From an uncultured Pelagibacteraceae bacterium (GTDB lineage Bacteria; Pseudomonadota; Alphaproteobacteria; Pelagibacterales; Pelagibacteraceae), in assembly GCA_902517615.1 (NCBI GenBank), contig CABYCY010000004.1, positions 18,041 to 82,040 on the forward strand: a DNA stretch of 64,000 nucleotides, read 5' to 3'. The position numbers and the translations under genes were made by a program. Positions 1 to 34,655 of the stretch are shown here, piece after piece (the stretch's first letter is position 1; every line of letters begins with the position of its first letter). A model generated the notes under the pieces. The model saw only the letters and a program-made list of their open reading frames with translations. It was not told the DNA's origin and made no database searches.

Positions 1-1302
1 GCAAATTATGCTAGAGGTGAAGATACTTATGATCCAGTTTTATCACAAGCAGTAGTATTTCCAGAAACTAACGAAGAAGTTTCTCAAATTTTAAAAATAT
101 GTAATGAGAATAAAATACCAGTTGTACCATTCGGCACCGGAACATCTTTAGAGGGTAATGCAGTTGGTAATTCTAATGGGATTACAATTTCATTAGAAAA
201 AATGAATAAAGTTTTATCTGTAAATGCTGAAGACTTTGATTGTAGGGTACAGGCAAATGTTACTAGAAAACAATTAAATGAATATTTAAGAGAGGATGGT
301 GTTTTTTTTCCAATTGACCCAGGTGCAGATGCTGCTCTTGGAGGAATGGCATCTACATCAGCTTCAGGAACGATGGCAGTAAAATATGGAACTATGAGAA
401 CTGTAATCTCAGGTTTAACTGTTGTTTTAGCTAATGGAGATATAATCAAAACAGGCGCAAGAACTAAAAAGACTTCAGCAGGATATAATCTAACAAATTT
501 GTTTATCGGTTCAGAGGGTACTCTAGGAATAATTACAGAGGTACAAGTTAGGTTATCACCAGTTCCAGAAAGTATAATGAGTGCTGTATGCTATTTTCCA
601 GATTTAGACTCAGCAGTTAAAACTGCTCAAGAAGTAATCCAGTATGGAGTTCCAATTGCAAGAATTGAAATGCTTAATAAAGATCAAATGGAGATTAGTA
701 TTAAATATTCAAAATTAGATAATATTAAAGCTTCACCAACTTTATTTTTTGAATTTCATGGAAGTGAAACTACAAACAATGAAGCAATAGGCATTGTAGA
801 AGAATTATCTAAAAATAATAATGGAAGTGATTTTCAGTGGGCATCTTCACCTGAAGAGCAAAAAAAATTATGGAAAGCAAGACATGATGTTTACTATTCT
901 GTAAAAGCACTTGGTAGCAACATGAAAGTTTATTCTACAGATGTATGTGTTCCCATTTCAAGATTAGTTGAATGTATTTCTTGGGCAGAAAAGGAAGTTA
1001 ACAAATTAGGTCTTACTGCCCCAATGGTGGGCCACGTAGGAGATGGGAATTTTCATTCGATTGTATTGTATGATCCACATGATAAAGAGAAACAAAAAAA
1101 AATAAGACAGTACAGTGATGATCTTATTAATAAAGCTTTAGAACTTGAGGGAACTATAACTGGTGAACATGGTATTGGCTTACAAAAAAAACATTATCTT
1201 TTAAAAGAGCATCTAGATAATCTTCCTGTGATGAAAGCAATAAAAAGAAGTCTAGATACTAATAATATTATGAATCCTGGAAAAGTATTCGATTTAAATT
1301 AA
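1..1302 (+). CDS. FAD-linked 2-hydroxyacid oxidase/dehydrogenase (D-lactate dehydrogenase/GlcD family), 5'-truncated by window edge
   Basis: Frame 1 is open from base 1 (ANYARGEDTYDPV...VVPFGTGTSLEG), upstream of the ORF-track Met at 202; family motifs IDPGADA, GSEGTLG, GHVGDGNFH, TGEHGIG, NPGK. Confidence 0.85.
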   Translation, partial: ANYARGEDTYDPVLSQAVVFPETNEEVSQILKICNENKIPVVPFGTGTSLEGNAVGNSNGITISLEKMNKVLSVNAEDFDCRVQANVTRKQLNEYLREDGVFFPIDPGADAALGGMASTSASGTMAVKYGTMRTVISGLTVVLANGDIIKTGARTKKTSAGYNLTNLFIGSEGTLGIITEVQVRLSPVPESIMSAVCYFPDLDSAVKTAQEVIQYGVPIARIEMLNKDQMEISIKYSKLDNIKASPTLFFEFHGSETTNNEAIGIVEELSKNNNGSDFQWASSPEEQKKLWKARHDVYYSVKALGSNMKVYSTDVCVPISRLVECISWAEKEVNKLGLTAPMVGHVGDGNFHSIVLYDPHDKEKQKKIRQYSDDLINKALELEGTITGEHGIGLQKKHYLLKEHLDNLPVMKAIKRSLDTNNIMNPGKVFDLN

Positions 1303-1317
1303 TCAAAAAAATTTTTT

Positions 1318-2271
1318 ATGAAAAAAATATTAATAACGAGAAGATTATTAAGATCTTGCGAGGAAAAAGCTGAAAAAACTTTTAAAGCTAACTTAAATTT
1401 AAATGATGAATTATATTCTCAAAAAAAATTAATTGAACTTAGTGAAGGTTGTGATGGTTTGCTCTCGTCTTTAACAGATAAACTTGATACAGAAACTATT
1501 AGTAAGCTCCCAGAAAGCATCAAAATAATATCAAATTTTGCTGTTGGATTTGGTAATATTGATTTAGAAGCAGCTAAAAAAAGAGACATAGCAGTAACAA
1601 ACACTCCAGAAGTACTTACTGATGCTACAGCAGAGATTGGTGTTTTGCTAATTCTTGGTGCTTGTAGAAGAGCATCGGAAGGAATTGCAAGTGCTAGAGA
1701 GGGCGGTTGGAAATGGTCAGCAGATTATTTAATTGGAAAACAATTAACAGGAGCAAGATTGGGTATTTTAGGAATGGGAAGAATCGGTCAAAAAATAGCA
1801 AAAATAGCAAAGTCTTTAGGAATGGTAATTCACTATCATAATCGATCAAAATTAAGTGGTGATAAAGAACAAGGAGCAATTTACCATAATAACTTAAAAG
1901 ATTTGTTATCAGTTTCTGATGTTCTTTCAATCTGCTGTCCTGCTTCGAAGGAAACTGTTGATATGATTAATAAAGATACTATTGAATATTTACCCAAAGG
2001 TGCCGTTGTAACTAATGTTGCAAGAGGAGATATAGTTGATGATGAAGCAATGATTGATGCTCTTGAAAGAAGAAAAATTTATGCAGTAGGTTTAGATGTC
2101 TATAAGAACGAACCAAATTTAAATCCTGGTTATCTTAAACATAAAAGCGCATTTATTCTCCCCCATTTAGGAAGCGCAACAAAAGATACTCGTACTGCAA
2201 TGGCTAATTTAGCAATAGATAATATTGATGAATTTTTTAATACAGGAAATTGCAAAAACAAAGTAAATTAA
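1318..2271 (+). CDS. D-isomer-specific 2-hydroxyacid dehydrogenase (glyoxylate/hydroxypyruvate reductase-like)
   Basis: AVGFGNID, NTPEVLTDATAE, GMGRIG nucleotide-binding motif, NVARG, LDVY, PHLGSAT. Confidence 0.88.
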   Translation: MKKILITRRLLRSCEEKAEKTFKANLNLNDELYSQKKLIELSEGCDGLLSSLTDKLDTETISKLPESIKIISNFAVGFGNIDLEAAKKRDIAVTNTPEVLTDATAEIGVLLILGACRRASEGIASAREGGWKWSADYLIGKQLTGARLGILGMGRIGQKIAKIAKSLGMVIHYHNRSKLSGDKEQGAIYHNNLKDLLSVSDVLSICCPASKETVDMINKDTIEYLPKGAVVTNVARGDIVDDEAMIDALERRKIYAVGLDVYKNEPNLNPGYLKHKSAFILPHLGSATKDTRTAMANLAIDNIDEFFNTGNCKNKVN

Positions 2272-2289
2272 AGCAAAATAATTTACATA

Positions 2290-3189
2290 CTAAATTCTAG
2301 ATAATAATAAAATTGTCACTCCTATTACAAAAATAATAATTCCCATAATTTCTGTAAATCTTACTTTTTCTTTAAATAAATATCTTGAAGAAAAATAACT
2401 AAATAACAATTCAACTTGACCAAGTGCTCTTACAAATGATGATTGAATTAAAGTGAAGGCATAAAACCAAGACAATGATGCAAATAATCCAGCTATGCCT
2501 GTTAAAATACATTCATACTTATCATTATAAAGTTTATTGAACTCTGATCTTTCAAAAAAAATTAAGTAAAATGTTAAAATTAAAGTTTGTATAAATAAAC
2601 CAATGAATAGGGCCGAAATAGCTTTTCCAAAATTTGAACTAATATTATCTAAAGTTAATATTGCTGCTCTAAAATAGACTACACTTAAAGCCAAGAATAA
2701 TCCTGATATCAATCCAATTAAAGTTGTTTTTGAAAATAAATTATTAAAAAATAATTTTACGTCTTTTATAGATAATAAGATAACACCCAGCGTTGATATA
2801 ATAATTCCACTAATTCCAAATTTATTTAATTTTTCATTTAATATTAAATATTCAAATAACGCTACTTGGATAACTTCAGTTTTGCTAAGGGATGTACCAA
2901 CAACAAAATTTGAAAAATTAAATAAATATAACAATATAAATGTAAAAATAATTTGAAAGATTGATGCAAGAAAAACATTAAATAAAAATCCTGGTTGTAT
3001 TAATATGGTGCTTATTATATTTAAATCTCTAAAGAATAAAAAAAACAATATTGCTGCAAATGGTAGTGCAAAAGCAAACCTAACATAAGTAGAAGCTATA
3101 GTAGAAATATCTTTATTTAATTTTTTTTGTAAAGATGATCTTAAATTTTGAAAAAAAGCCCCAAAAACTGTAACTAATACCCAGTTCAT
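2290..3189 (-). CDS. DMT/EamA-family membrane transporter
   Basis: 299 aa, ~10 hydrophobic segments in two repeats, RSSLQK and VRALGQVE-type motifs of EamA-like proteins. Confidence 0.75.
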   Translation of the reverse strand: MNWVLVTVFGAFFQNLRSSLQKKLNKDISTIASTYVRFAFALPFAAILFFLFFRDLNIISTILIQPGFLFNVFLASIFQIIFTFILLYLFNFSNFVVGTSLSKTEVIQVALFEYLILNEKLNKFGISGIIISTLGVILLSIKDVKLFFNNLFSKTTLIGLISGLFLALSVVYFRAAILTLDNISSNFGKAISALFIGLFIQTLILTFYLIFFERSEFNKLYNDKYECILTGIAGLFASLSWFYAFTLIQSSFVRALGQVELLFSYFSSRYLFKEKVRFTEIMGIIIFVIGVTILLLSRI

Positions 3190-3262
3190 TAATAATTATT
3201 TATTTGTAATACATTTAAAAGTCGACTTTAATATTAGGTTAAACAATTTAGAAGGAAATAAC

Positions 3263-4252
3263 ATGAAAATATTAAAAAAAATAATTTTTTCTTTAATTTT
3301 TGTTTCTATAGCTAGTGCAAGCTTTGCTGAAACAAAAATGAGAATAACTCTCCAATTACCTTTAAAGGCACACTTAGGTCAAAACCTTTTGGTGTTTAAA
3401 AAAGAATTGGAGTCAAGGTCAGACATAACAGTAGAAATTTATGACTCAGCACAACTTTATAAAGACAAGGAAGTTCCTCAAGCTGTAGGTTCGGGAGCTA
3501 TTGAAGCTGGCGTAGCATCAATAACAAGATTTGCAGGAACAAATCCAGAGGTTGATATTTTTTACTTACCGTTTCTATTTGACTCAGAGGCAAAAATTAG
3601 AAAAGCAACCAAGGCTGGATCTGAAATCAGATCAATTCTTGACCCTGCTATAGCATCTACTGGTGCTGTGCCATTATATTATCAGGCTTATGGATCAGCA
3701 ATTATGCTTTCTAACGGTGGACCAATGAAATCACCTGCTGATTTCAAAGATAAGAAAATTAGAGTATTTGGAAAAACTTTAGGAGCTTTTATAAGTTCTT
3801 TAGGTGGTAAACCAGCATTGATATCAGGCTCTGAGCAATATTTAGCTTATCAAAGAAATACTGTAGATGCAGGTATGACTGGAGTATCAGGAGTGAAATC
3901 AAGAAAACTTTATCAAGTTATGGACACTTTAACAATAACTAATCACGGTGATATAGAGTTCGTTGTCGTTGCAAATGATAAATGGTTAAAATCATTAACC
4001 CAAAAACAAAGAGATGCTATTGCTGAAGCATCTAAAGTTGCTGAAAAAGCTGTTAGAGATGACATGGCTAATATTGAAGCAGCTGCTTACAAAGAAGCAA
4101 AAGCAAATGGAATGAACATTGTTAACTTATCAAGTTCTGAAACATCTGCTCTTAAAAAAGCATCTTCTTCAGTTATAGATGATTATATTTCTAGAACTGG
4201 TGGAGCTGGTGGAGTTGGAGATAAATTAGTTAAAGCAGCTAATAATCTATAA
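3263..4252 (+). CDS. dctP: TRAP transporter substrate-binding protein (DctP family), system 1
   Basis: Sec signal peptide (…ASASFA/E), VEIYDSAQLYKDKE, DFKDKKIRVFG with conserved Arg, followed by small and large TRAP permeases; RBS GAAGGA. Confidence 0.9.
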   Translation: MKILKKIIFSLIFVSIASASFAETKMRITLQLPLKAHLGQNLLVFKKELESRSDITVEIYDSAQLYKDKEVPQAVGSGAIEAGVASITRFAGTNPEVDIFYLPFLFDSEAKIRKATKAGSEIRSILDPAIASTGAVPLYYQAYGSAIMLSNGGPMKSPADFKDKKIRVFGKTLGAFISSLGGKPALISGSEQYLAYQRNTVDAGMTGVSGVKSRKLYQVMDTLTITNHGDIEFVVVANDKWLKSLTQKQRDAIAEASKVAEKAVRDDMANIEAAAYKEAKANGMNIVNLSSSETSALKKASSSVIDDYISRTGGAGGVGDKLVKAANNL

Positions 4253-4265
4253 TTAAATAATAAAT

Positions 4266-4293
4266 AAATCCCGCAATTAATTTTGCGGGGTTT
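4266..4293 (+). terminator. Stem-loop between dctP and dctQ of TRAP system 1
   Basis: AAATCCCGCAA-TTAATT-TTGCGGGGTTT inverted repeat, 3' arm running into T residues. Confidence 0.7.
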
Positions 4294-4297
4294 TGTT

Positions 4298-4774
4298 ATG
4301 AATTATTACGATAAAATTGTAAAATATTCTGGCTATTTAGCTTCAGCTTTATTCATAGCCATAGGATTTATAGTTTCTTATGAAGTAATCATGAGATACT
4401 TATTTAATTCACCAACTATCTGGGTAAATGAAGTTTCAAGATTTTTGCAAATTTGGGCGACTTATCTTGCATTAACTTATTCATTTCATAAACAAGATTT
4501 TATTAGAATAACAGTTATTTATGACAGGTTAAATCAAACTGGAAAAAAAATTTTAGATTTTATTAGTTTTATTTTTATTATTATTTTTAGTTGTTTCGTT
4601 GTCTATTATGGATGGTTAATAGCTTATGACTCTTTAAAAGTTGGACGAACTAGTTCTACTATTTTAGACGTTCCATCATTTTTAACAGAATTAGCAATTC
4701 CACTTTGTTTTGCATTTTTAGTCATAAGAGTAATTTTAGAGGCGATAAGATATATAAGGAATTTTTCTAAATGA
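4298..4774 (+). CDS. dctQ: TRAP transporter small permease (DctQ), system 1
   Basis: ~4 TM segments, EVIMRYLFNSPTIWVNEVSR and IRITV motifs; ATG 4298 preferred over TTG 4283, which lies inside the hairpin. Confidence 0.88.
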   Translation: MNYYDKIVKYSGYLASALFIAIGFIVSYEVIMRYLFNSPTIWVNEVSRFLQIWATYLALTYSFHKQDFIRITVIYDRLNQTGKKILDFISFIFIIIFSCFVVYYGWLIAYDSLKVGRTSSTILDVPSFLTELAIPLCFAFLVIRVILEAIRYIRNFSK

Positions 4775-6042
4775 TAGTTGCATTAATTCTATTTGTTCTT
4801 TTTTCGATATTGTTTTTAGGAGTTCCTATCGCTTTTGGTCTTGGCTCACTAGGGTTAGGTTTAATGCTATTAGGGGATATTTCTCCACTTATGATACCAC
4901 AGACATTTTATAGTGTTGCAGATAATTTTATACTTTTGGCTGTACCCATGTTTTTAATGATGTCTAATATTCTTTTGAAAGCAGGAGTTGGTGAAGACCT
5001 TTTTAATTTTGCACAAAGTTGGGTTGGAAATTTTCCAGGAGGTTTAGCTATAGCAACTATTGTTTCGTGTAGTATCTTTGCAGCTATCTCTGGTTCATCT
5101 GTTGCTACAGCTGCAACAATTTCAACTGTAGCATTTCCTGCAATGATTAAAAGAGGTTATCATAGGAATTTTACTTTGGGAATTTTGGCTGCGGGAGGAA
5201 CATTGGGTATTTTAATACCTCCTTCTATTCCAATGATTGTATATGCATTTGTTGTTGAAGAATCGGTATTAAGTATGTTTTTAGCTGGTATTGGACCAGG
5301 AATAGTGTTGGCACTTTTCTTCATTATTTTTTCAGTTTTTTATGTAATTTTTTTTAATAAAGAAGTTCAAAATGTCAAAACATCATTTGAAGATAAAATT
5401 AAATATACAAAAAAAGGTTTACCAGTTTTATTAATGGCTTTTATAATGTTAGGAGGAATTTATGCTGGTATATACACTCCAACTGAAGCAGGTGGAATAG
5501 GTTTTTTAATATCCTTTATATATGTTGTCGCCAAAAAAAAAATAGACTTTAAACGTTTTATTGAAGCTGGTTTGGAGACTATGAAAACAACTGTAACAAT
5601 ATTTATTATTATTGCTGGTGCTAAAATTTTTGGTAAAGCTATTTCGCTTTATAGAATACCTCAAGAACTTTCTGCTTTCATAGTTACAAATATAACTGAA
5701 CAAGGTATGTTTATATTTGTTGTTGCGATCACTTTGTTAATTTTAGGATTTATAATGGAAACTTTATCCTTAATTTTAATTATGATGCCCATATTTGCTA
5801 TTTCTATTGCTGCAATGAATATTGATTTAATTTGGTTTGGAATTATTTTTACTCTTATGATTGAGTGTGCTTTGATAACCCCTCCTGTGGGTTTGAATAT
5901 TTATGTTCTGCAAGCCATTGGTAAAGCAAAAATGGCTGAAATAGCTAAAGGTGTGATACCTTTTGTATTAATTATGCTTTTTACAGTTTATGTGATTTAC
6001 TTGTTTCCTGACTTAGCGTTATATATACCTTTTAAATTATAA
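4771..6042 (+). CDS. dctM: TRAP transporter large permease (DctM), system 1
   Basis: 423 aa hydrophobic; LLAVPMF, AISGSSVATA, GTLGILIPPSI, TPTEA, ITPPVGLN motifs. Confidence 0.93.
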   Translation: MIVALILFVLFSILFLGVPIAFGLGSLGLGLMLLGDISPLMIPQTFYSVADNFILLAVPMFLMMSNILLKAGVGEDLFNFAQSWVGNFPGGLAIATIVSCSIFAAISGSSVATAATISTVAFPAMIKRGYHRNFTLGILAAGGTLGILIPPSIPMIVYAFVVEESVLSMFLAGIGPGIVLALFFIIFSVFYVIFFNKEVQNVKTSFEDKIKYTKKGLPVLLMAFIMLGGIYAGIYTPTEAGGIGFLISFIYVVAKKKIDFKRFIEAGLETMKTTVTIFIIIAGAKIFGKAISLYRIPQELSAFIVTNITEQGMFIFVVAITLLILGFIMETLSLILIMMPIFAISIAAMNIDLIWFGIIFTLMIECALITPPVGLNIYVLQAIGKAKMAEIAKGVIPFVLIMLFTVYVIYLFPDLALYIPFKL

Positions 6043-6044
6043 TT

Positions 6045-6920
6045 ATGTTTTCAAAAATAAAATCAAAAGATAAAGCTGCTAAATTAAGAAAAATTTTAGA
6101 TAAAAAAGATATAATTGTTATGCCTGGTTGTTTTGATGCTTTATCAGCAAAACTAATAGAGAGAGAAGGATTTAATGTAGGATTTATGTCTGGCTTTAGT
6201 GTTTCTTCAACGCGATTAGGCATGCCTGATACTGGACTAATATCATTTTCAGAAATGGCTGAGCAAGTAAGAAATATATGTAACTCAACATCGATTCCAA
6301 TTATTTTTGACGGTGATACTGGTTATGGAAATTCTGTTAATGTATTTAGAACAGTAAGAGGTTATGCAGACGCTGGTGCAGCTGGTGTAATGATTGAAGA
6401 TCAAAAATGGCCTAAAAAATGTGGACATACCAAAGGAAAAGATGTTGTGGAAATAGATGAGGCAAAATCAAGAATTAAAGCTGCTGTAGATGCAAGAAAA
6501 TACGGAGATAATGATATTTTAATTATGGCCAGAACAGATGCAATTGCAACTCATGGTCTCGATGAAGCAATTAAGAGAATGCAAATATTTTCAGAGATTG
6601 GCGTTGATATTCTTTTCATAGAAGCTGTCAAATCAAAAGAAGATATGAAAAAAATTATGACAGAAGTTCCCGGAAATCACATGGTAAATTTAATTGAGGA
6701 TGGAGATACTCCATTGTTAGATATTAATGAATTAGAGGAAATAGGTTATAAGATTGCAGTGATGCCACTAACTTTAATGAGTGCTTCAGTTAAAACTATG
6801 CAAGAATGTTTAAAAAATATGAAAAATAAAACTTATAATACAAATATAACAAAGTTTTCAGAATTAAGAGATATAGTGGGTTTCAATGAATATTACAATA
6901 TTGAAGATAAGTATAAATAA
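6045..6920 (+). CDS. Isocitrate lyase/PEP mutase superfamily enzyme (methylisocitrate/dimethylmalate lyase-like)
   Basis: PGCFDALSAKL, DGDTGYG, IEDQ, KKCGH catalytic loop, ARTDA, FIEA. Confidence 0.88.
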   Translation: MFSKIKSKDKAAKLRKILDKKDIIVMPGCFDALSAKLIEREGFNVGFMSGFSVSSTRLGMPDTGLISFSEMAEQVRNICNSTSIPIIFDGDTGYGNSVNVFRTVRGYADAGAAGVMIEDQKWPKKCGHTKGKDVVEIDEAKSRIKAAVDARKYGDNDILIMARTDAIATHGLDEAIKRMQIFSEIGVDILFIEAVKSKEDMKKIMTEVPGNHMVNLIEDGDTPLLDINELEEIGYKIAVMPLTLMSASVKTMQECLKNMKNKTYNTNITKFSELRDIVGFNEYYNIEDKYK

Positions 6921-6984
6921 TGTTTTAAAAAAGATCCAAAAAAAAATTTACCAAAAAAATTAAAATTAATTAAAGGAGATTTGC

Positions 6985-7899
6985 ATGAGTGATAAAATTG
7001 CTTTTATTGGAGTCGGAAATATGGGCAATCCAATGGCAGAAAATTTATTTAAATCTGGAAAAGAAATCAAAGTATTTGATGTTTCAAATGAAATGATTGA
7101 GCGAGCTAAAAAAAAAGGTCTAAATACAACAGATAGTATTGAATCTTTAATTAATGACGAAATCTCTACAGTGATAACAATGTTGCCTGAGGGCAAACAT
7201 TCAAAAGAAATATATCTAGGCGATAGTGGAATAATTAATAAAGTTTCAAAAAATTGTTTGTTAATAGATTGTTCAACAATAGATATAGAAACTTCAAAAG
7301 AAATTGGGAAAGTTGCAAATAATCAAGGTATTATGATGATAGATGCTCCAGTAAGTGGTGGAGTAATGGGGGCTCAAAAAGCAACTCTTAATATAATGGT
7401 TGGTGGGTCTAAAGAAGCTTTCGATAGAGCATTACCAGTTTTAAAAGTTATGGGAAAAAATATTTATCATGCTGGCGATATTGGAAGTGGTAATGGAGCT
7501 AAGATTTGTAACAATATGGCTTTAGGAATTTCAATGATTGCTGCTTCAGAATCATTAATGTTAGCTAAAAGATTGCATATAGATATTAAAAAGGTCCATG
7601 AGATTATGAAAAATGCATCAGGCAATAGTTGGCCCATTTCAGTTTATCCTCCCTTACCAGGTTTGATTGATGGAACTCCATCTAATAATAATTATCGACC
7701 TGGTTTTTCTGCAGGAATGATGAACAAAGATCTTAAATTAGCTTATGAATGCGCAAAAAGCGTAGATGCAGAAACACCATTAGGTAAGATGGCGTTAGAA
7801 ATTTATGATCAATTTTGTAAAGAAGGAAATGAGTCAAAAGATTTTTCAGCTATTTCAAAGGTTATTGGTGGAAATGCTTGGGATTATCCAATAGATTAA
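6985..7899 (+). CDS. mmsB: 3-hydroxyisobutyrate dehydrogenase
   Basis: FIGVGNMGNPMA, ITMLP, DCSTID, DAPVSGG, AKICNN, MMNKDL; RBS AAGGAG. Confidence 0.88.
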   Translation: MSDKIAFIGVGNMGNPMAENLFKSGKEIKVFDVSNEMIERAKKKGLNTTDSIESLINDEISTVITMLPEGKHSKEIYLGDSGIINKVSKNCLLIDCSTIDIETSKEIGKVANNQGIMMIDAPVSGGVMGAQKATLNIMVGGSKEAFDRALPVLKVMGKNIYHAGDIGSGNGAKICNNMALGISMIAASESLMLAKRLHIDIKKVHEIMKNASGNSWPISVYPPLPGLIDGTPSNNNYRPGFSAGMMNKDLKLAYECAKSVDAETPLGKMALEIYDQFCKEGNESKDFSAISKVIGGNAWDYPID

Positions 7900-8008: not shown

Positions 8009-9139
8009 ATGATTAAAGAAAAAAAATCATTGAAGGGAAAATTACCTTCAAGACGTAAGTTCTTTAAAGCTGCTGCTGCAACTGGTGTTGCTGCTGTAGC
8101 CGCATCATCTTTAGCCGCTCCAGCTGTTGCACAAGAAAGAGTTGAAGCAGCTATGGTAGCTACTTGGCCAAGAGATTTTCCTGGTCTAGGAACTGGTGCC
8201 CAAAGACTTGCACAAAGATTATCAGATATGAGTGACGGAAGAATACAAGTTACTTATTATGCTGCTAACGAAAGAGTTAAAGCATTTGATTCATTTGATG
8301 AAGTTGCATCTGGTAACTCACAAATGTATCATGGAGCTGACTACTACTGGGTTAAAAAACACCCAGCGTTTGGTTACTTCACAGCATGTCCGTTTGGATT
8401 TACTTATTCAGAAATTAATGCTTGGATTCACCATGGAGGTGGACAAGAACTTTGGGATGAATTAACTGATGATTTTGGTACTCAAAGTTTTATAGCAGGA
8501 AATACTGGAGTTCAAATGGGCGGTTGGTTTAATAAAAAAATTAGATCAGCTAATGACCTTAAAGGTTTAAAAATGCGTATGCCTGGATTAGGTGGACAAG
8601 TACTTGGAAAACTTGGTGGTTCTCCAATTTCACTTCCTGGCGGACAAATTTATGAAAACCTTGTTTCTGGTGCAATTGATGCAACTGAATGGGTAGGTCC
8701 TTGGAATGATGAAGCAATGAAGTTCCATGAAGCAGCTAAGTATTATTACTATCCTGGTATGCACGAACCTGGTTCGATGTTAGCTTGTGGTGTTAATAAA
8801 TCTTGGTTTACAAGCTTAACTAAGTCAGACCAAATGATAATCAAAACTGCTTGCGCATGGGCGGACGAGATTACAATGGCAGAATACAATGCTAAAAACG
8901 GTGCAGCTTTATCAAGACTAGTAAACGAAAATGGAGTTAAACTTGAGAAGTTTAGCGACAAAGTTTACGATGCTTTTGCTAAAGGTGCTGCTGAAGTTTA
9001 TGATGAAGTTCAACAACACAGTGATCTTGCTGCTAGAACGCACAAAGCTTTTGTTAAAGCTAGAAAAGAGATCGGTGCTTGGACCAACTTATCAGACTCA
9101 CCGTACATTGCTCAAAGAAACAGAGCTTTAGGACTATAG
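8009..9139 (+). CDS. dctP: TRAP substrate-binding protein, TakP/alpha-keto-acid-binding-like subfamily, Tat-exported, system 2
   Basis: Twin-arginine signal SRRKFFK; TWPRDFPGLG, GNTGVQMGGWF, GLKMRMPG, IDATEWVGP, PGMHEPG; strong RBS AGAGGAG. Confidence 0.9.
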   Translation: MIKEKKSLKGKLPSRRKFFKAAAATGVAAVAASSLAAPAVAQERVEAAMVATWPRDFPGLGTGAQRLAQRLSDMSDGRIQVTYYAANERVKAFDSFDEVASGNSQMYHGADYYWVKKHPAFGYFTACPFGFTYSEINAWIHHGGGQELWDELTDDFGTQSFIAGNTGVQMGGWFNKKIRSANDLKGLKMRMPGLGGQVLGKLGGSPISLPGGQIYENLVSGAIDATEWVGPWNDEAMKFHEAAKYYYYPGMHEPGSMLACGVNKSWFTSLTKSDQMIIKTACAWADEITMAEYNAKNGAALSRLVNENGVKLEKFSDKVYDAFAKGAAEVYDEVQQHSDLAARTHKAFVKARKEIGAWTNLSDSPYIAQRNRALGL

Positions 9140-9166
9140 TACTTAAAGTTTTAAGTTAAATTTAAT

Positions 9167-9193
9167 AAAAGGGCCCTTTTTAGGGCCCTTTTT
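9167..9193 (+). terminator. Intrinsic terminator-like hairpin after the TRAP 2 binding-protein gene
   Basis: AAAAGGGCCCT-TTTT-AGGGCCCTTTT perfect 11-bp stem ending in T tract. Confidence 0.8.
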
Positions 9194-9219
9194 AATAAGT
9201 ATAAAAATTCATTTAAATT

Positions 9220-10203
9220 ATGTTTGTAAAAAACAATTTACCAGTACTAATAAGAATATTTAGTTATTCAATATTAGCTACTACTTTTGTCTTTTTATTT
9301 AATAATGTTTTGACAGTTTGGTTTGACTGGCCAGGGGTAAAAAATTTATTTTCTCATTATGGCTTATTTGGATTTAAAAAATTGAGTAAACCACTTTCAG
9401 ATTCAGTTTTAAATTTTGCCTTTTTACAATTATTTTTTTACTTAATTTCAATATTGCTGGCAATTTTTTATGTAAATAGATCAATAAAACAAACATTAAC
9501 AGCAGATTCAAAAATTTTAGATAAATTCACTGCCTATATAATTCGTTCATCTTTTTGGGCAGTATTAATTGTTGGGCTCGCAGATTTACTAATCTCATTT
9601 TTAGTTGTAGAAAAATTAGTTGAACCATTATTAGGAGAATACTTAAAAATTAAATTAGTAGTTCCAGCTTTTAGGATTACATATGTTCATTTTCCACTAA
9701 TTTTAATTTCATTTGTAGTTGGATATTTTACTAGATCTGTAGGTTTTATTTGGCTAGCGGTGCTTGTGGTAGGTAGTGAGTTTTTTATAGTGTTATCCAG
9801 ATTTATATTTGAATATGAACAAGCTTTCCAAGGGGATTTAGTTCGTTTCTGGTATTCGGCCCTTTATCTTTTTGCAAGTGCTTATGCGTTAATTCACGAA
9901 GGACATGTTAGGGTTGATGTTTTATATACAGGTTTTAGTGAACGAAAAAAAGCTTGGACTAATTCAATAGGATCATTAATTTTTGGCATTCCTTTATGTC
10001 TCATAGTTTTATTTTTAGGAATGGGTGGAAAGGCGAGTATTATTAATGGCCCAGTTATTTCTTTTGAAATTACTCAGCAAGGTTCTAACGGATTATATTT
10101 ACTTTATTTGATGGCAATATATCTGGCTGTATTTGCTGTCTCAATGTTAATCCAATTTACCAGTTATTTTATGAGTAGTAGTGATAAACTTTTGAAAAAT
10201 TAA
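9220..10203 (+). CDS. dctQ: TRAP small permease (DctQ) with extra N-terminal membrane region
   Basis: C-terminal half has DctQ motifs (SRFIFEY, YALIHEGHVRVDVLY); 327 aa versus 158 aa for the other DctQ in this window. Confidence 0.82.
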   Translation: MFVKNNLPVLIRIFSYSILATTFVFLFNNVLTVWFDWPGVKNLFSHYGLFGFKKLSKPLSDSVLNFAFLQLFFYLISILLAIFYVNRSIKQTLTADSKILDKFTAYIIRSSFWAVLIVGLADLLISFLVVEKLVEPLLGEYLKIKLVVPAFRITYVHFPLILISFVVGYFTRSVGFIWLAVLVVGSEFFIVLSRFIFEYEQAFQGDLVRFWYSALYLFASAYALIHEGHVRVDVLYTGFSERKKAWTNSIGSLIFGIPLCLIVLFLGMGGKASIINGPVISFEITQQGSNGLYLLYLMAIYLAVFAVSMLIQFTSYFMSSSDKLLKN

Positions 10204-10206
10204 ATT

Positions 10207-12858
10207 ATGGAACATTTATTTTTAGCTTTACTTGTTATTATAATGATAGGAGCATTGGCTTCAGGTTTTCCAGTAGCTTTTGCTTTGCCCGGTTCAGCAA
10301 TTGTTTCAATAGGTTTTGCAGCTTTTTTTGGATATCTTTTTGAAGGAGATGTAAGCGCTTATTTTGCAACTGATGGCCCAAAAGAGTGGCTAACTGCAGG
10401 GATTACAAATTTCAGGAGTAATTATTGGGATGTAGAGACAGATACCTTAATTGCTATTCCATTATTTATTTTTATGGGAATTATGTTGCAAAAATCAAAG
10501 ATCGCTGAAGATCTTTTAGTTACTATGGGTCAATTATTTGGCCCAATTCCAGGAGGGTTAGGTATTTCAGTAATTTTCGTTGGAGCTTTACTTGCAGCAA
10601 CCACAGGTATAGTTGGGGCAACAGTTATTGCGATGGGATTAATTTCATTGCCAACTATGTTGAATAACAAATATGACAAAAGTCTTGCAAGTGGTATTGT
10701 TTGTTCATCAGGAACTCTAGGTCAAATAATACCTCCATCAATTGTTTTAATAATTATTGCAGATCAATTAGCTAGTGCAGCAGATGTAGCTAATACAATC
10801 CGTCAAACAGATTATAAAATTCTTACTGGTGAATTTAACATGCCTGGAGAGTTTAGAGTGGGGTCTACTAGTGCTGGAGATATGTTTTTAGGAGCTTTGT
10901 TACCCGGATTAGTTTTGGTTGGATTATATATGTTGTATGTTTTTGTTTATGCAAGAATAAACCCTAAAGCTGCACCGCCAGTAACATTTAAAGGAAACTT
11001 TGATTTTAAATTTTGGATAAAAGTTATAGGTGTAATAATTCCACCTCTTGCTTTAATTTTCGCAGTACTTGGATCTATATTAATGGGTATTGCTACTGTA
11101 AATCAAGCTGGATCCATTGGAGCAATTGGTGCAACAATGATGGCAGGTTACCGTCTTCATAAAGGTAGGAAAGATGCATATTATCCAATAATAATATCAG
11201 TTATATCGGTTATCCCAATATTTTTTCTCGCTAAGAATTATAACTTAAATATTAAAGCTATAGATACAAGAGACTCAACTGCAATATTAATTACAGGATT
11301 TTTTACAATCACATTTTTAATTGGAATTGTTTGGAGCTTTTGGAGGTCTTACAAAATTGAAAATGTCTTAAAAGAAGTGGTTACAGAAACATGTGTGACT
11401 ACTTCAATGGTTTTTATAATTCTTTTAGGAGCTGCAATGTTAACTTCTGGTTTTAGAGCTTTTGGAGGAGAAGAATTAGTAAGAGATTTTTTACAAGATT
11501 TACCTGGAGGTTTTTGGACACAGTTTATAGTTGTGATGGCTGTAATTTTTTTATTAGGTTTCTTTCTCGATTTTATTGAAATTGCTGTAGTGGTTGTTCC
11601 TATTATTGCACCAATATTATTAGCTGAACCAGGTGCAAATATAAGTGCAATTTGGCTAGGAGTGATGATTGGAGTTAATTTACAAACATCTTTCTTAACC
11701 CCGCCATTTGGGTTTGCATTATTTTACTTAAAAGGAGTTGCTTCAAAATTAGTTACTACTTTAAATATATGGAAAGGAGTTGTTCCTTTTATAATTCTTC
11801 AACTTATTGGTCTTGGAATTGTCGGTTTTTATCCATCATTAGTAAATTATTTACCTGCAAGAACATATTTAACATCAAATGTTGCACCACCACCAATGAA
11901 TCCTAAACTTCAATATTGTTTACAAGAATATAAATTCCCTATTTATAATAATGAAGGGGATAAAATTAGAAATGCAATAATAAATTTTCAAAAGCTGACA
12001 CCTTCTAATCTTCCAAATGATAAATTAGATATATTTGAAGAACACTTTGATAATGCTCTTGGAACTTTCGCAATAGTTAAAAAACTTCAAAAAACTGAAG
12101 AAGAGTACAATTTATTTGCAGAGGATTACAGAAATCTTCATTTCTCTGTTAGGAAAAAACAGAAAAAATTAAGAAAAATTGATCATAAAATTAAAAAGTT
12201 AAAATCTGAAATTAGAAATCTAGATAAAGATGATGTGTCAAATAAAAATAAATTAGAACTTAAAATAGAAAATTATAAATTAGAAATTATTGAAATAAAA
12301 AATCAAATACCTGAAAATTGGAAATCTCGAAACAAAGAATTTGAAATACTTCACAAGGCGAAAAATACTAGAACAAAACGTTATAGAAAAAATGTTGATG
12401 AAGCATATGACAGCTTAGATCAAATAGTAATGTTTATAAATGATCATGAAAAGTTAAAAAATCTTTCACCTGAAATTAAAGAATTAAAATATTCTATAAA
12501 TAATAAAGACTATGAAAATTCAATTTCAATAATTGATAACCTTTTCGAAAAATTAAGTGAAATTTCAGGTATGGAAGAATTTGGAAATAAATTAGATGAT
12601 TTAATAACTGTAATAGATAATGAGGAAATTGATGAACAAAAATTATTATCTACCAGCACCGAAACATTTAGTCTATTTGATCAAGAAGTTTCTTGGAGAG
12701 GAGACGCTAATAAAAATTTATTACCTGAGTTAATGAAATATAATGATGTAATCAAAAATAATATTGGATTAAGACTTCAGTCAAGATTAACAAAAGAACA
12801 AGCCAAGTTTGTTGCAAGATGTAACTCAGTTCATAGAGATATATCTTTAAATTTTTAA
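10207..12858 (+). CDS. dctM: TRAP large permease (DctM) with ~330 aa hydrophilic C-terminal extension
   Basis: LIAIPLFIFMG, ATTGIVGA, GTLGQIIPPSI, LDFIEI, SFLTPPFGFAL; hydrophilic from about aa 551 to 883. Confidence 0.9.
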   Translation: MEHLFLALLVIIMIGALASGFPVAFALPGSAIVSIGFAAFFGYLFEGDVSAYFATDGPKEWLTAGITNFRSNYWDVETDTLIAIPLFIFMGIMLQKSKIAEDLLVTMGQLFGPIPGGLGISVIFVGALLAATTGIVGATVIAMGLISLPTMLNNKYDKSLASGIVCSSGTLGQIIPPSIVLIIIADQLASAADVANTIRQTDYKILTGEFNMPGEFRVGSTSAGDMFLGALLPGLVLVGLYMLYVFVYARINPKAAPPVTFKGNFDFKFWIKVIGVIIPPLALIFAVLGSILMGIATVNQAGSIGAIGATMMAGYRLHKGRKDAYYPIIISVISVIPIFFLAKNYNLNIKAIDTRDSTAILITGFFTITFLIGIVWSFWRSYKIENVLKEVVTETCVTTSMVFIILLGAAMLTSGFRAFGGEELVRDFLQDLPGGFWTQFIVVMAVIFLLGFFLDFIEIAVVVVPIIAPILLAEPGANISAIWLGVMIGVNLQTSFLTPPFGFALFYLKGVASKLVTTLNIWKGVVPFIILQLIGLGIVGFYPSLVNYLPARTYLTSNVAPPPMNPKLQYCLQEYKFPIYNNEGDKIRNAIINFQKLTPSNLPNDKLDIFEEHFDNALGTFAIVKKLQKTEEEYNLFAEDYRNLHFSVRKKQKKLRKIDHKIKKLKSEIRNLDKDDVSNKNKLELKIENYKLEIIEIKNQIPENWKSRNKEFEILHKAKNTRTKRYRKNVDEAYDSLDQIVMFINDHEKLKNLSPEIKELKYSINNKDYENSISIIDNLFEKLSEISGMEEFGNKLDDLITVIDNEEIDEQKLLSTSTETFSLFDQEVSWRGDANKNLLPELMKYNDVIKNNIGLRLQSRLTKEQAKFVARCNSVHRDISLNF

Positions 12859-33161: not shown

Positions 33162-34655
33162 ATGAATTTAATAGAGCATTTCGTAAACGGAAAAATAAAT
33201 CCGGGATCCTCAGATAAAAAAGCGAAAGTATTCAATCCAGCAACTGGAGATCAGGAATCAGAAGTAAGACTGGCTACAAAATCTGATCTAGATAATGCAG
33301 TTGCAATAGCAAAGAAAGCATTTGAAACTTGGTCTTTAAAACCAGCTCTCCAAAGAGCAAGAGTAATATTTAAGTTTAAGGAATTGATAGAAAGAAATTC
33401 TGATGAACTTACAAAAATGATAGTTTCTGAGCATGGTAAAGTTTATGAGGATGCAAGAGGTTCATTAACAAGAGGACTTGAAGTAGTAGAGTTTGCATGT
33501 GGAATCCCACATTTATTAAAAGGTGAATTTTCTGAAAATGTAGGAACAAATGTTGACAGTTGGTCGATTAGACAACCATTAGGCGTTGTTGCAGGTATTA
33601 CTCCATTTAATTTTCCAGCGATGGTTCCAATGTGGATGTTTCCAATAGCAATAGCTTGTGGAAACACATTTATTCTTAAACCTTCAGAAAAGGATCCGTC
33701 GTGTGCGATAAAATTGGCTGAATTACTTTCTGAGGCTGGCCTTCCTGATGGAGTTTTTAATGTAGTAAATGGAGATAAAGAAGCAGTTGATGCAATTTTA
33801 GAAAACAAAGATATTAAAGCTGTAAGTTTTGTTGGATCAACACCTATTGCTAAATATATTTATGAAAATTCTGCAAAAAATGAAAAAAGAGTGCAAGCTC
33901 TAGGAGGAGCCAAAAATCATTTGGTTGTAATGCCAGATTGTGATTTAGATGGTGCAGTTAATGGTTTAATGGGCGCAGCATATGGTTCAGCTGGAGAAAG
34001 ATGTATGGCTCAATCAGTTGCAGTTGCAGTTGGAGATATTGGAGACGAACTTGTAGCTAGATTATCAAAAAAAGCAGAAGCTTTAAAAGTAGGTCCAGGT
34101 ATGGATAAAACCTCTGAAATGGGACCCTTGGTTACAAAAGAACATTTAGAAAAAGTAAAAAGCTATGTTGATTTAGGTGTTCAAGAGGGAGCTAAGCTAG
34201 TAGTTGATGGAAGAAATTTAAAACTTCAAGGTTATGAAAATGGTTTCTATATAGGTGGCTGCTTATTTGATCATGTAAACAAAGATATGAAAATTTACAA
34301 AGAAGAAATATTTGGTCCAGTTTTATCAGTCGTGAGAGTTAAAACTTTTGAGGATGCTGCAAAGTTGATTAATGATCATGAATATGGAAATGGTGTAAGT
34401 ATTTATACAAGAGATGGTGACGCGGGCAGAACTTTTGCAAGTAAAATTCAAATAGGAATGGTAGGAATAAATGTACCAATTCCTGTACCAATGGCTTTTC
34501 ATAGTTTTGGTGGATGGAAAAGATCTTTATTTGGAGATAGTGGGATGCATGGCATGGAAGGAATAAAATTTTATACTAAACTTAAAACAGTAACATCTAG
34601 ATGGCCTTCTGGTGTCCGTTCAAATGCAGAATTTGTAATGCCAACAATGAAATAA
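33162..34655 (+). CDS. mmsA: CoA-acylating (methyl)malonate-semialdehyde dehydrogenase
   Basis: ITPFNFPAMVPMWM, KPSEKDP, SFVGSTP, GGAKNH, YGSAGERCMA, EEIFGPV, FGGWKRS. Confidence 0.93.
   Translation: MNLIEHFVNGKINPGSSDKKAKVFNPATGDQESEVRLATKSDLDNAVAIAKKAFETWSLKPALQRARVIFKFKELIERNSDELTKMIVSEHGKVYEDARGSLTRGLEVVEFACGIPHLLKGEFSENVGTNVDSWSIRQPLGVVAGITPFNFPAMVPMWMFPIAIACGNTFILKPSEKDPSCAIKLAELLSEAGLPDGVFNVVNGDKEAVDAILENKDIKAVSFVGSTPIAKYIYENSAKNEKRVQALGGAKNHLVVMPDCDLDGAVNGLMGAAYGSAGERCMAQSVAVAVGDIGDELVARLSKKAEALKVGPGMDKTSEMGPLVTKEHLEKVKSYVDLGVQEGAKLVVDGRNLKLQGYENGFYIGGCLFDHVNKDMKIYKEEIFGPVLSVVRVKTFEDAAKLINDHEYGNGVSIYTRDGDAGRTFASKIQIGMVGINVPIPVPMAFHSFGGWKRSLFGDSGMHGMEGIKFYTKLKTVTSRWPSGVRSNAEFVMPTMK

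Follow-up and report, generated by a model that had tools for sequence, protein, structure and literature searches.

Introduction

The best described enzymes with which the subject of this report can be compared are members of the isocitrate lyase/phosphoenolpyruvate mutase (ICL/PEPM) superfamily: petal death protein from Dianthus caryophyllus (PDB code 1zlp), a broad 2-alkylmalate lyase; 2,3-dimethylmalate lyase from Aspergillus niger (PDB code 3fa3), also found in the nicotinate fermentation of Eubacterium barkeri; and the methylisocitrate lyase PrpB from Escherichia coli (b0331, PDB code 1mum). [quoted passage not shown] The DNA analysed is a stretch of 64,000 nucleotides (hereafter, the window; contig CABYCY010000004.1, positions 18,041 to 82,040, of assembly GCA_902517615.1) from a genome whose 37 contigs add up to 1.32 Mb. 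The genes dctP, dctQ, dctM and the lyase gene are collectively called the cassette. An original prediction, made from the window sequence, had joined these four genes and a fifth, mmsB, into one run, in which the transporter would take up a substituted malate or similar branched hydroxy-acid and the lyase would release pyruvate.

Petal death protein shares with the cassette lyase the KKCGH loop and an F-x-S-G-aromatic motif where PrpB carries YLSGGG. At three positions that are T/R/R in PrpB, it has hydrophobic or aromatic residues instead (I/Y/F, against I/S/F in the cassette lyase). The plant enzyme differs in having no transporter partner and a wider C2 pocket, with Ala and Ser at the positions of Val239 and Pro241 of the cassette lyase. 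Dimethylmalate lyase splits a 2,3-dialkylmalate into pyruvate and propionate, which is the chemistry proposed here; however, it carries KRCGH and YMTGAG instead of KKCGH and FMSGFS, and it operates in a long nicotinate pathway or in fungal metabolism rather than in a four-gene import cassette. PrpB agrees with the cassette lyase in fold, metal ligands and catalytic cysteine loop, but differs by residues T212, R241 and R270, by the YLSGGG motif and by its setting in prpBCDE. The logic of the arrangement is analogous to that of SiaPQM and NanA, in which one lyase, partnered with a TRAP importer, liberates pyruvate from the sialic acid taken up, although NanA belongs to an unrelated lyase family (class I aldolases), the substrate is another one, and more genes are needed for the second product.

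Within SAR11, DctPQM "metaparalogs" have been described as accessory, island-borne and strain-variable systems whose substrates were guessed from neighbouring genes (PMC11796062; bioRxiv 10.64898/2026.10.07.757358). The cassette is likewise accessory and strain-variable. It departs from these accounts in that they mention neither a lyase partner nor a spread beyond SAR11; the only lyase named in the second of them is sulfolactate sulfo-lyase (bioRxiv 10.64898/2026.10.07.757358).

A conserved transporter-lyase operon

The dctP, dctQ, dctM and lyase genes occur together and in the same order in all 11 of the SAR11 loci examined, which represent five genera, and metagenome contigs show the identical four-gene arrangement. 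Thousands of cassette variants are present in marine metagenomes. An EamA-family gene usually lies divergently 5' of the operon in the SAR11 loci, and the 3' neighbours are different every time (GSDH, TauD, SDR plus FAH, aldehyde dehydrogenase, DAO), all of them convergent. Orthologues of the lyase with at least 69% sequence identity were found in about 17 of 201 sampled Pelagibacteraceae genomes, spread over five genera, and most of the 201 genomes contain only a homologue with 30–38% identity, in the range of the subject genome's own PrpB. Because the identities are distributed bimodally, the lyase is a distinct, accessory paralogue. One SAR11 orthologue (G104:C1:113655-114528, locus L022) is in two pieces with an in-frame TGA, and may be a pseudogene or reflect a sequencing error.

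The operon is also found outside SAR11. It is present at 4 of 17 loci in an even sample of Alphaproteobacteria, with DctP 56–61% and lyase 51–58% identical to those of the window, and at 34 of 77 loci in named organisms (one genome per species), with DctP orthologues sharing 44–61% identity. Carriers include Roseibium, Thalassospira lucentensis, T. lohafexi, Pseudooceanicola, Marivita hallyeonensis, Roseovarius litoreus, Jhaorihella, Tateyamaria, Stappia, Pseudovibrio, several SAR116 genomes, Geminicoccaceae and Hyphomicrobiales. The gene order is constant, and between dctM and the lyase gene there is either a 2-bp gap or a 4-bp overlap. Clustering of all neighbours of 30 operons gave no recurring extra gene, such as a regulator or a second enzyme, beyond a few closely related genomes; the annotated flanks outside SAR11 are unrelated housekeeping genes (Pfam). 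The dctPQM-lyase set is a conserved, self-contained operon, and the co-occurrence analysis suggested with the original prediction thus finds the TRAP-lyase pairing conserved over several alphaproteobacterial groups.

A second, more remote group of lyases, with 37–40% identity, a YMTG[F/Y]G motif that resembles the YMTGAG of dimethylmalate lyase, and V/L/F at the three positions that distinguish PrpB, has DctP1-like TRAP systems as partners in four other genomes. The pairing of TRAP systems of the DctP1 subfamily with lyases whose leaving-group site is non-polar is therefore old and recurrent, far beyond what adjacency by chance would produce.

Two neighbouring genes were considered as further members of the unit and rejected. 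The EamA gene is present at a site that lacks the cassette (see below) and absent beside the operon outside SAR11. An aceE-like gene for pyruvate dehydrogenase E1 (887 residues, Pfam) lies between EamA and dctP on the operon strand at locus L029 (13508-16171); an 884-residue open reading frame (ORF) occupies this position at L030 (4064-6718), and gaps of equal size are found at L032 and L033, the identity of the gene being seen only in L029. The aceE gene is not a general partner; its position may be a coincidence or a hint of a pyruvate product.

Active site and relatives of the lyase

The lyase was aligned with E. coli PrpB, with which it shares 34% identity, and with the PrpB of the subject genome. 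The cysteine loop KKCGH (K124–H128), the metal motif DGDTGYG (D89–G95) and the sequence FMSGFS where E. coli PrpB has YLSGGG, all noted in the original prediction, were located in this alignment. The catalytic and metal-binding set is retained (S49, G50, D62, D89, D91, E118, K124, C126, H128, R163, E193 and N215). The combination of PF13714 and PF00463 domains, magnesium ligands and a K-x-C-G-H loop with its cysteine is that of the C-C lyase branch of the ICL/PEPM superfamily.

A search of the PDB identified petal death protein as the closest solved relative (217.5 bits, E-value 2.3e-63, residues 11–291), followed by 2,3-dimethylmalate lyase (174.5 bits); both rank above all methylisocitrate lyases, in keeping with the kinship that had been proposed for this enzyme. 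The residues T212, R241 and R270 of E. coli PrpB are replaced by I217, S246 and F271 in the window lyase and in all of its aligned SAR11 orthologues. Among the remaining alphaproteobacterial homologues, the first position is I, V or L, the second is S or A in most cases and otherwise K, N or T, and the third is F. The alignments of the PDB matches show I/Y/F for petal death protein and V/G for dimethylmalate lyase. The T/R/R set is found in E. coli PrpB, in the PrpB of the subject genome and in the Bacillus protein 4iqd. The enzyme appears to belong to the petal-death-protein/dimethylmalate-lyase branch of the superfamily, with catalysis predicted from its sequence.

A tree of 108 sequences groups the SAR11 enzymes in a clade with full support, nested within a group with 99% support in the Shimodaira-Hasegawa-like approximate likelihood ratio test that also contains other alphaproteobacterial homologues and a number of long proteins. 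Both PrpB proteins fall outside this group. The phylogeny called for with the original prediction thus separates the window lyase from PrpB, in a tree built without petal death protein, dimethylmalate lyase and oxaloacetate hydrolase sequences; two candidate anchors (P0220 and P0260) are no nearer to 1zlp than the window lyase is.

The PrpB model TIGR02317 matches the lyase with 267.1 bits, under its cut-off of 354.4. A separate PrpB, which scores 372.6 bits against the same model and thus exceeds the cut-off, is encoded on contig C9 beside a PrpD/MmgE-like gene, and an isocitrate lyase on contig C3. The C9 gene is the sole PrpD/MmgE-like match in the genome, and no prpD-like gene was found on the contig that carries the lyase. 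Identity as PrpB was therefore rejected: the score is under the cut-off, T/R/R is replaced, a true PrpB is present elsewhere, and there is no association with prpC or prpD. The view that the enzyme is not clearly a methylcitrate-cycle lyase holds on the grounds of the model score, the separate PrpB and the replaced residues, and the local absence of prp genes, on which that view had drawn, is matched by the finding that only dctPQM recurs beside the lyase. A second 2-methylisocitrate or isocitrate lyase, serving imported tricarboxylates, would account for PrpB being the best match among the NCBIfam models and for a KKCGH loop identical to that of isocitrate lyases; it is very improbable, given the same sub-threshold score and replaced residues and the presence of both a true PrpB and an isocitrate lyase elsewhere in the genome.

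At the PrpB locus itself (C9:60385-62538), PrpB follows the PrpD/MmgE-family gene, whose product scores 101 bits against a PrpD cut-off of 458. This low score makes the methylcitrate-type locus of SAR11 atypical.

Phosphonate or mutase chemistry, in the form of a phosphoenolpyruvate (PEP) mutase, a carboxy-PEP mutase or a phosphonopyruvate hydrolase, can be given hardly any probability. The lyase belongs to the Pfam PEP_mutase family and matches a carboxy-PEP mutase model with 213 bits. All models of this kind, however, remain far below their cut-offs (TIGR02320, 120.4 versus 319.55; TIGR02319, 213.3 versus 420.05; TIGR02321, 118 versus 374.4), the catalytic cysteine loop is of the lyase type, and none of the examined loci showed phosphonate genes.

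A serine in the gating loop after CGH is a marker of oxaloacetate acetylhydrolase. The corresponding loop of the window lyase, KKCGHTKGK, has no serine at this position, and neither does that of petal death protein, KKCGHMRGK, an enzyme that nevertheless hydrolyses oxaloacetate.

The TRAP importer

The P, Q and M components of the transporter are all above their Pfam cut-offs, as is the lyase. DctP1 has a signal peptide that reaches to about residue 22, and its R167 corresponds to the carboxylate-binding arginine conserved in solved DctP proteins; these features together place the system among the DctP-type TRAP transporters. The only characterized TRAP binding protein of strain HTCC1062, SAR11_0864, binds isethionate and 2,3-dihydroxypropane-1-sulfonate (PMC11485210). 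DctP1 is distant from the solved isethionate binder 8t9t (65.6 bits).

Proposed function

Given the tight and conserved coupling of transporter and lyase and the relatives of the enzyme, import and cleavage of a substituted malate is the best reading of the cassette. With a little better than even confidence, we propose that it converts an acid of the 2-alkylmalate type into a 2-oxoacid and a monocarboxylate. The corresponding proposal in the original prediction agrees with the coupling and with the lyase relatives, but its inclusion of mmsB does not stand. The kind of substrate, its products and the flux direction are inferred.

In the proposed mechanism, DctP1 would bind the carboxylate in the periplasm and DctQM would import it at the expense of an ion gradient. 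The translationally coupled lyase, which should be Mg-dependent and employ the Cys126 loop, would then split the C2-C3 bond of the 2-hydroxy-dicarboxylate by a retro-aldol reaction of the isocitrate lyase type. T212, R241 and R270 of PrpB are, on the basis of methylisocitrate lyase structures, the residues that grip the far carboxylate of the succinate moiety. Because this site is non-polar in the cassette lyase, lined by hydrophobic or small residues, a monocarboxylate would be expected to leave, either acetate or propionate, rather than succinate. F186, L234 and P236 presumably form the methyl pocket in PrpB, and the equivalent residues of the cassette lyase are F191, V239 and P241; since the two C2 pockets are similar, pyruvate is the likely 2-oxoacid. 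Citramalate (2-methylmalate), which would give pyruvate and acetate, appears to fit best, with 2,3-dimethylmalate or 2-ethylmalate as alternatives; citramalate specifically is a best guess, and carries less confidence than the substrate class as a whole. Pyruvate and acetate or propionate would be directly usable, so that no further dedicated gene would be required, and the lack of any other enzyme in the unit fits a substrate with two central-metabolite products.

Several points weigh against this proposal. Petal death protein is of broad specificity and also hydrolyses oxaloacetate, so that kinship with it fixes no single substrate. The closest solved relatives of DctP1 are remote (92 bits), and these, 4o94 and 4ovs, are C4-dicarboxylate binders in complex with succinate. 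About half of the lyase homologues outside SAR11 (77 loci) have no adjoining TRAP system, and a literature search found no report of dissolved citramalate in seawater.

Some of the same observations suit another substrate. The compound taken up by the transporter could be a simple C4 acid, namely D- or L-malate, oxaloacetate or tartrate, from which the lyase would release glyoxylate or oxalate together with acetate, and such a route could supply SAR11 with glyoxylate for glycine. The succinate complexes 4o94 and 4ovs and the oxaloacetate hydrolase activity of petal death protein speak for it, as does the position of the cassette among glcD-like and glyoxylate/hydroxypyruvate-reductase-like genes. 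These neighbours are not conserved with the cassette, however; the similarity of DctP1 to the C4-dicarboxylate binders is low (about 90 bits), and F191, V239 and P241 resemble a pocket that accepts a methyl group. A plain C4 acid is therefore considered unlikely, and a 2-alkylmalate remains the preferred substrate.

mmsB, the empty site and the neighbouring module

The mmsB gene, which encodes a beta-hydroxyacid dehydrogenase of the 3-hydroxyisobutyrate dehydrogenase (HIBADH) type, had been counted as part of the unit; synteny, distribution and an empty site all contradict this. Of the 41 genomes of the genus, 10 contain orthologues with at least 79% identity, which makes mmsB an accessory gene, and its position beside the lyase is confined to a set of closely related Pelagibacter genomes. 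In five genomes (G603, G621, G622, G623 and G637) mmsB is present without the lyase. No HIBADH-type dehydrogenase is found near any of the 34 operons outside SAR11.

Three arrangements of mmsB are observed. In the first (G603, G621 and G623), it directly follows a 2-hydroxyacid dehydrogenase gene, without TRAP or lyase genes; in G623, a glcD-like gene is seen just 5' of this dehydrogenase. The second (G637) consists of the 2-hydroxyacid dehydrogenase, EamA and mmsB. Genomes with these two arrangements have no lyase orthologue, only the PrpB-like paralogue. In the third (G608, G609, G611, G617, L084 and L200-L202), mmsB follows the lyase, usually with a gene for a small membrane protein in between; the window has this arrangement without the small gene. 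In L084, the small gene (5565-5900) encodes 111 residues and is assigned to the SMR family by Pfam. A gap of 236 bp separates lyase and dehydrogenase in L091-L094.

The cassette-less site in G637 defines the limits of the unit. The left half of its 114-bp EamA-mmsB spacer corresponds to the window spacer between EamA and dctP, and the right half to the window spacer between the lyase and mmsB, including the ribosome-binding site. The halves match the flanks in the window, and the difference is therefore a clean insertion or deletion of exactly four genes, approximately 3235-6950. The cassette behaves as one insertion/deletion unit, and mmsB has its own ribosome-binding site and upstream region, which are kept in the genome without the cassette. 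Membership of mmsB in the unit was rejected, since the gene is missing beside the lyase in most loci, occurs elsewhere without the lyase, and is retained at the empty site. The "one run" of dctP, dctQ, dctM, lyase and mmsB exists as such in the subject genome, but as a conserved unit it comprises only the first four genes. Because a pattern scan detected no terminator in the 64-bp spacer between the lyase and mmsB, co-transcription of the two in the subject genome is possible.

These arrangements also bear on the idea that the transporter serves the two flanking reductases, importing hydroxypyruvate or 2-hydroxy-3-oxopropanoate for reduction to glycerate, with the lyase incidental. Such a substrate has been inferred for the SAR11 "Dct-6" DctPQM, which is flanked by two reductases (PMC11796062); the Dct-6 island may be the island described here, and in the window reductases of this type lie on either side of the cassette. 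The reductase genes, however, are directly adjacent without TRAP or lyase in G603, G621 and G623 and have only EamA between them in G637, the TRAP-lyase pair occurs without them at nearly all other loci, and the empty site in G637 shows the cassette to be separable. This role for the transporter therefore seems quite improbable. The GlcD-like oxidase and the two dehydrogenases (window 1-2271 and 6985-7899) look, from gene content and order, like a separate small hydroxy-acid module that, in the window, has been split by the cassette.

A gene for methylmalonate-semialdehyde dehydrogenase, mmsA (33162-34655; 705 bits, above cut-off), lies 26 kb 3' of mmsB, near dimethylsulfoniopropionate demethylation genes. 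The mmsB product can pair with this enzyme.

Gene organization in the window

The coordinates are summarized in Table 1; the positions and the plus strand given for the ORFs in the original prediction agree with the ORF list, and the gene identities with the Pfam and NCBIfam matches. The dctQ and dctM genes overlap by 4 bp, and 2 bp separate dctM from the lyase gene (TAA-TT-ATG). For dctQ, the ATG at 4298, which follows a hairpin, is from its sequence context a more likely start than the TTG at 4283 of the ORF list. This hairpin is probably a partial terminator or a stabilizing element that would yield more transcript of the binding protein than of the permease.

Table 1. Cassette genes and adjacent features in the window
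Feature	Position	Strand	Size and matches
dctP1, periplasmic TRAP solute-binding protein	3263-4252	+	329 aa; PF03480, 175.7 bits; NF037995, 113 bits (cut-off 50)
Hairpin, GC-rich, followed by a T-rich run	4270-4289	+	dctP-dctQ spacer; pattern scan and sequence
dctQ1, small TRAP membrane subunit	4298-4774	+	PF04290, 102.5 bits
dctM1, large TRAP permease subunit	4771-6042	+	423 aa; PF06808, 319 bits; TIGR00786, 352 bits (cut-off 268)
Predicted ICL/PEPM-superfamily C-C lyase, petal-death-protein/dimethylmalate-lyase type	6045-6920	+	291 aa; PF13714, 162.1 bits; PF00463, 55.5 bits
mmsB-type beta-hydroxyacid dehydrogenase (HIBADH)	6985-7899	+	TIGR01692, 366.6 bits (cut-off 291.6)
EamA-family membrane protein, divergent from dctP	2290-3189	-	PF00892

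The genes on the 5' side of the cassette encode an FAD oxidase similar to GlcD, a glyoxylate/hydroxypyruvate reductase type of D-2-hydroxyacid dehydrogenase and the divergent EamA protein (Pfam and NCBIfam). On the 3' side lies a second, unrelated TRAP system (8009-12858). Its binding protein is close to the solved 2-oxoacid binders 7ug8 and 2hzk (E-value about 1e-72), and is accompanied by a DctQ-like protein of 327 residues and then a DctM-like protein of 883 residues with additional sequence.

Significance

No characterization of this operon, of its ligand or of any operon combining a TRAP system with such a lyase was found in the literature search. The cassette represents an uncharacterized enzyme of a known kind in a simple transporter-plus-enzyme arrangement, the logic of which is ordinary. 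A tentative extension of the proposal, which we hold to be rather doubtful, is that the cassette marks an unrecognized labile component of dissolved organic matter in the sea, namely citramalate or a 2-alkylmalate related to it. This compound would be scavenged by a subset of SAR11 and by many Roseobacter, Stappia, Thalassospira and SAR116 bacteria, via a minimal four-gene route that feeds pyruvate into central metabolism. Possible sources of 2-alkylmalates are leakage from the cyanobacterial citramalate route to isoleucine, algal exudates, and photochemical or aerosol input.

SAR11 bacteria have few entry points for carbon and, as culture work has shown, need pyruvate or its precursors. Each accessory transporter is therefore informative about the compounds that are available in seawater. 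The cassette matters in this respect since it is abundant in marine metagenomes, strain-variable in SAR11 and common to cultured, tractable Alphaproteobacteria, and its presence in the latter means that the substrate can be found by ordinary binding, enzyme and knockout experiments. Knowledge of the ligand would put a name and a marker gene to another flux of labile organic carbon, and would correct the routine annotation of these genes as methylisocitrate lyase and C4-dicarboxylate transporter.

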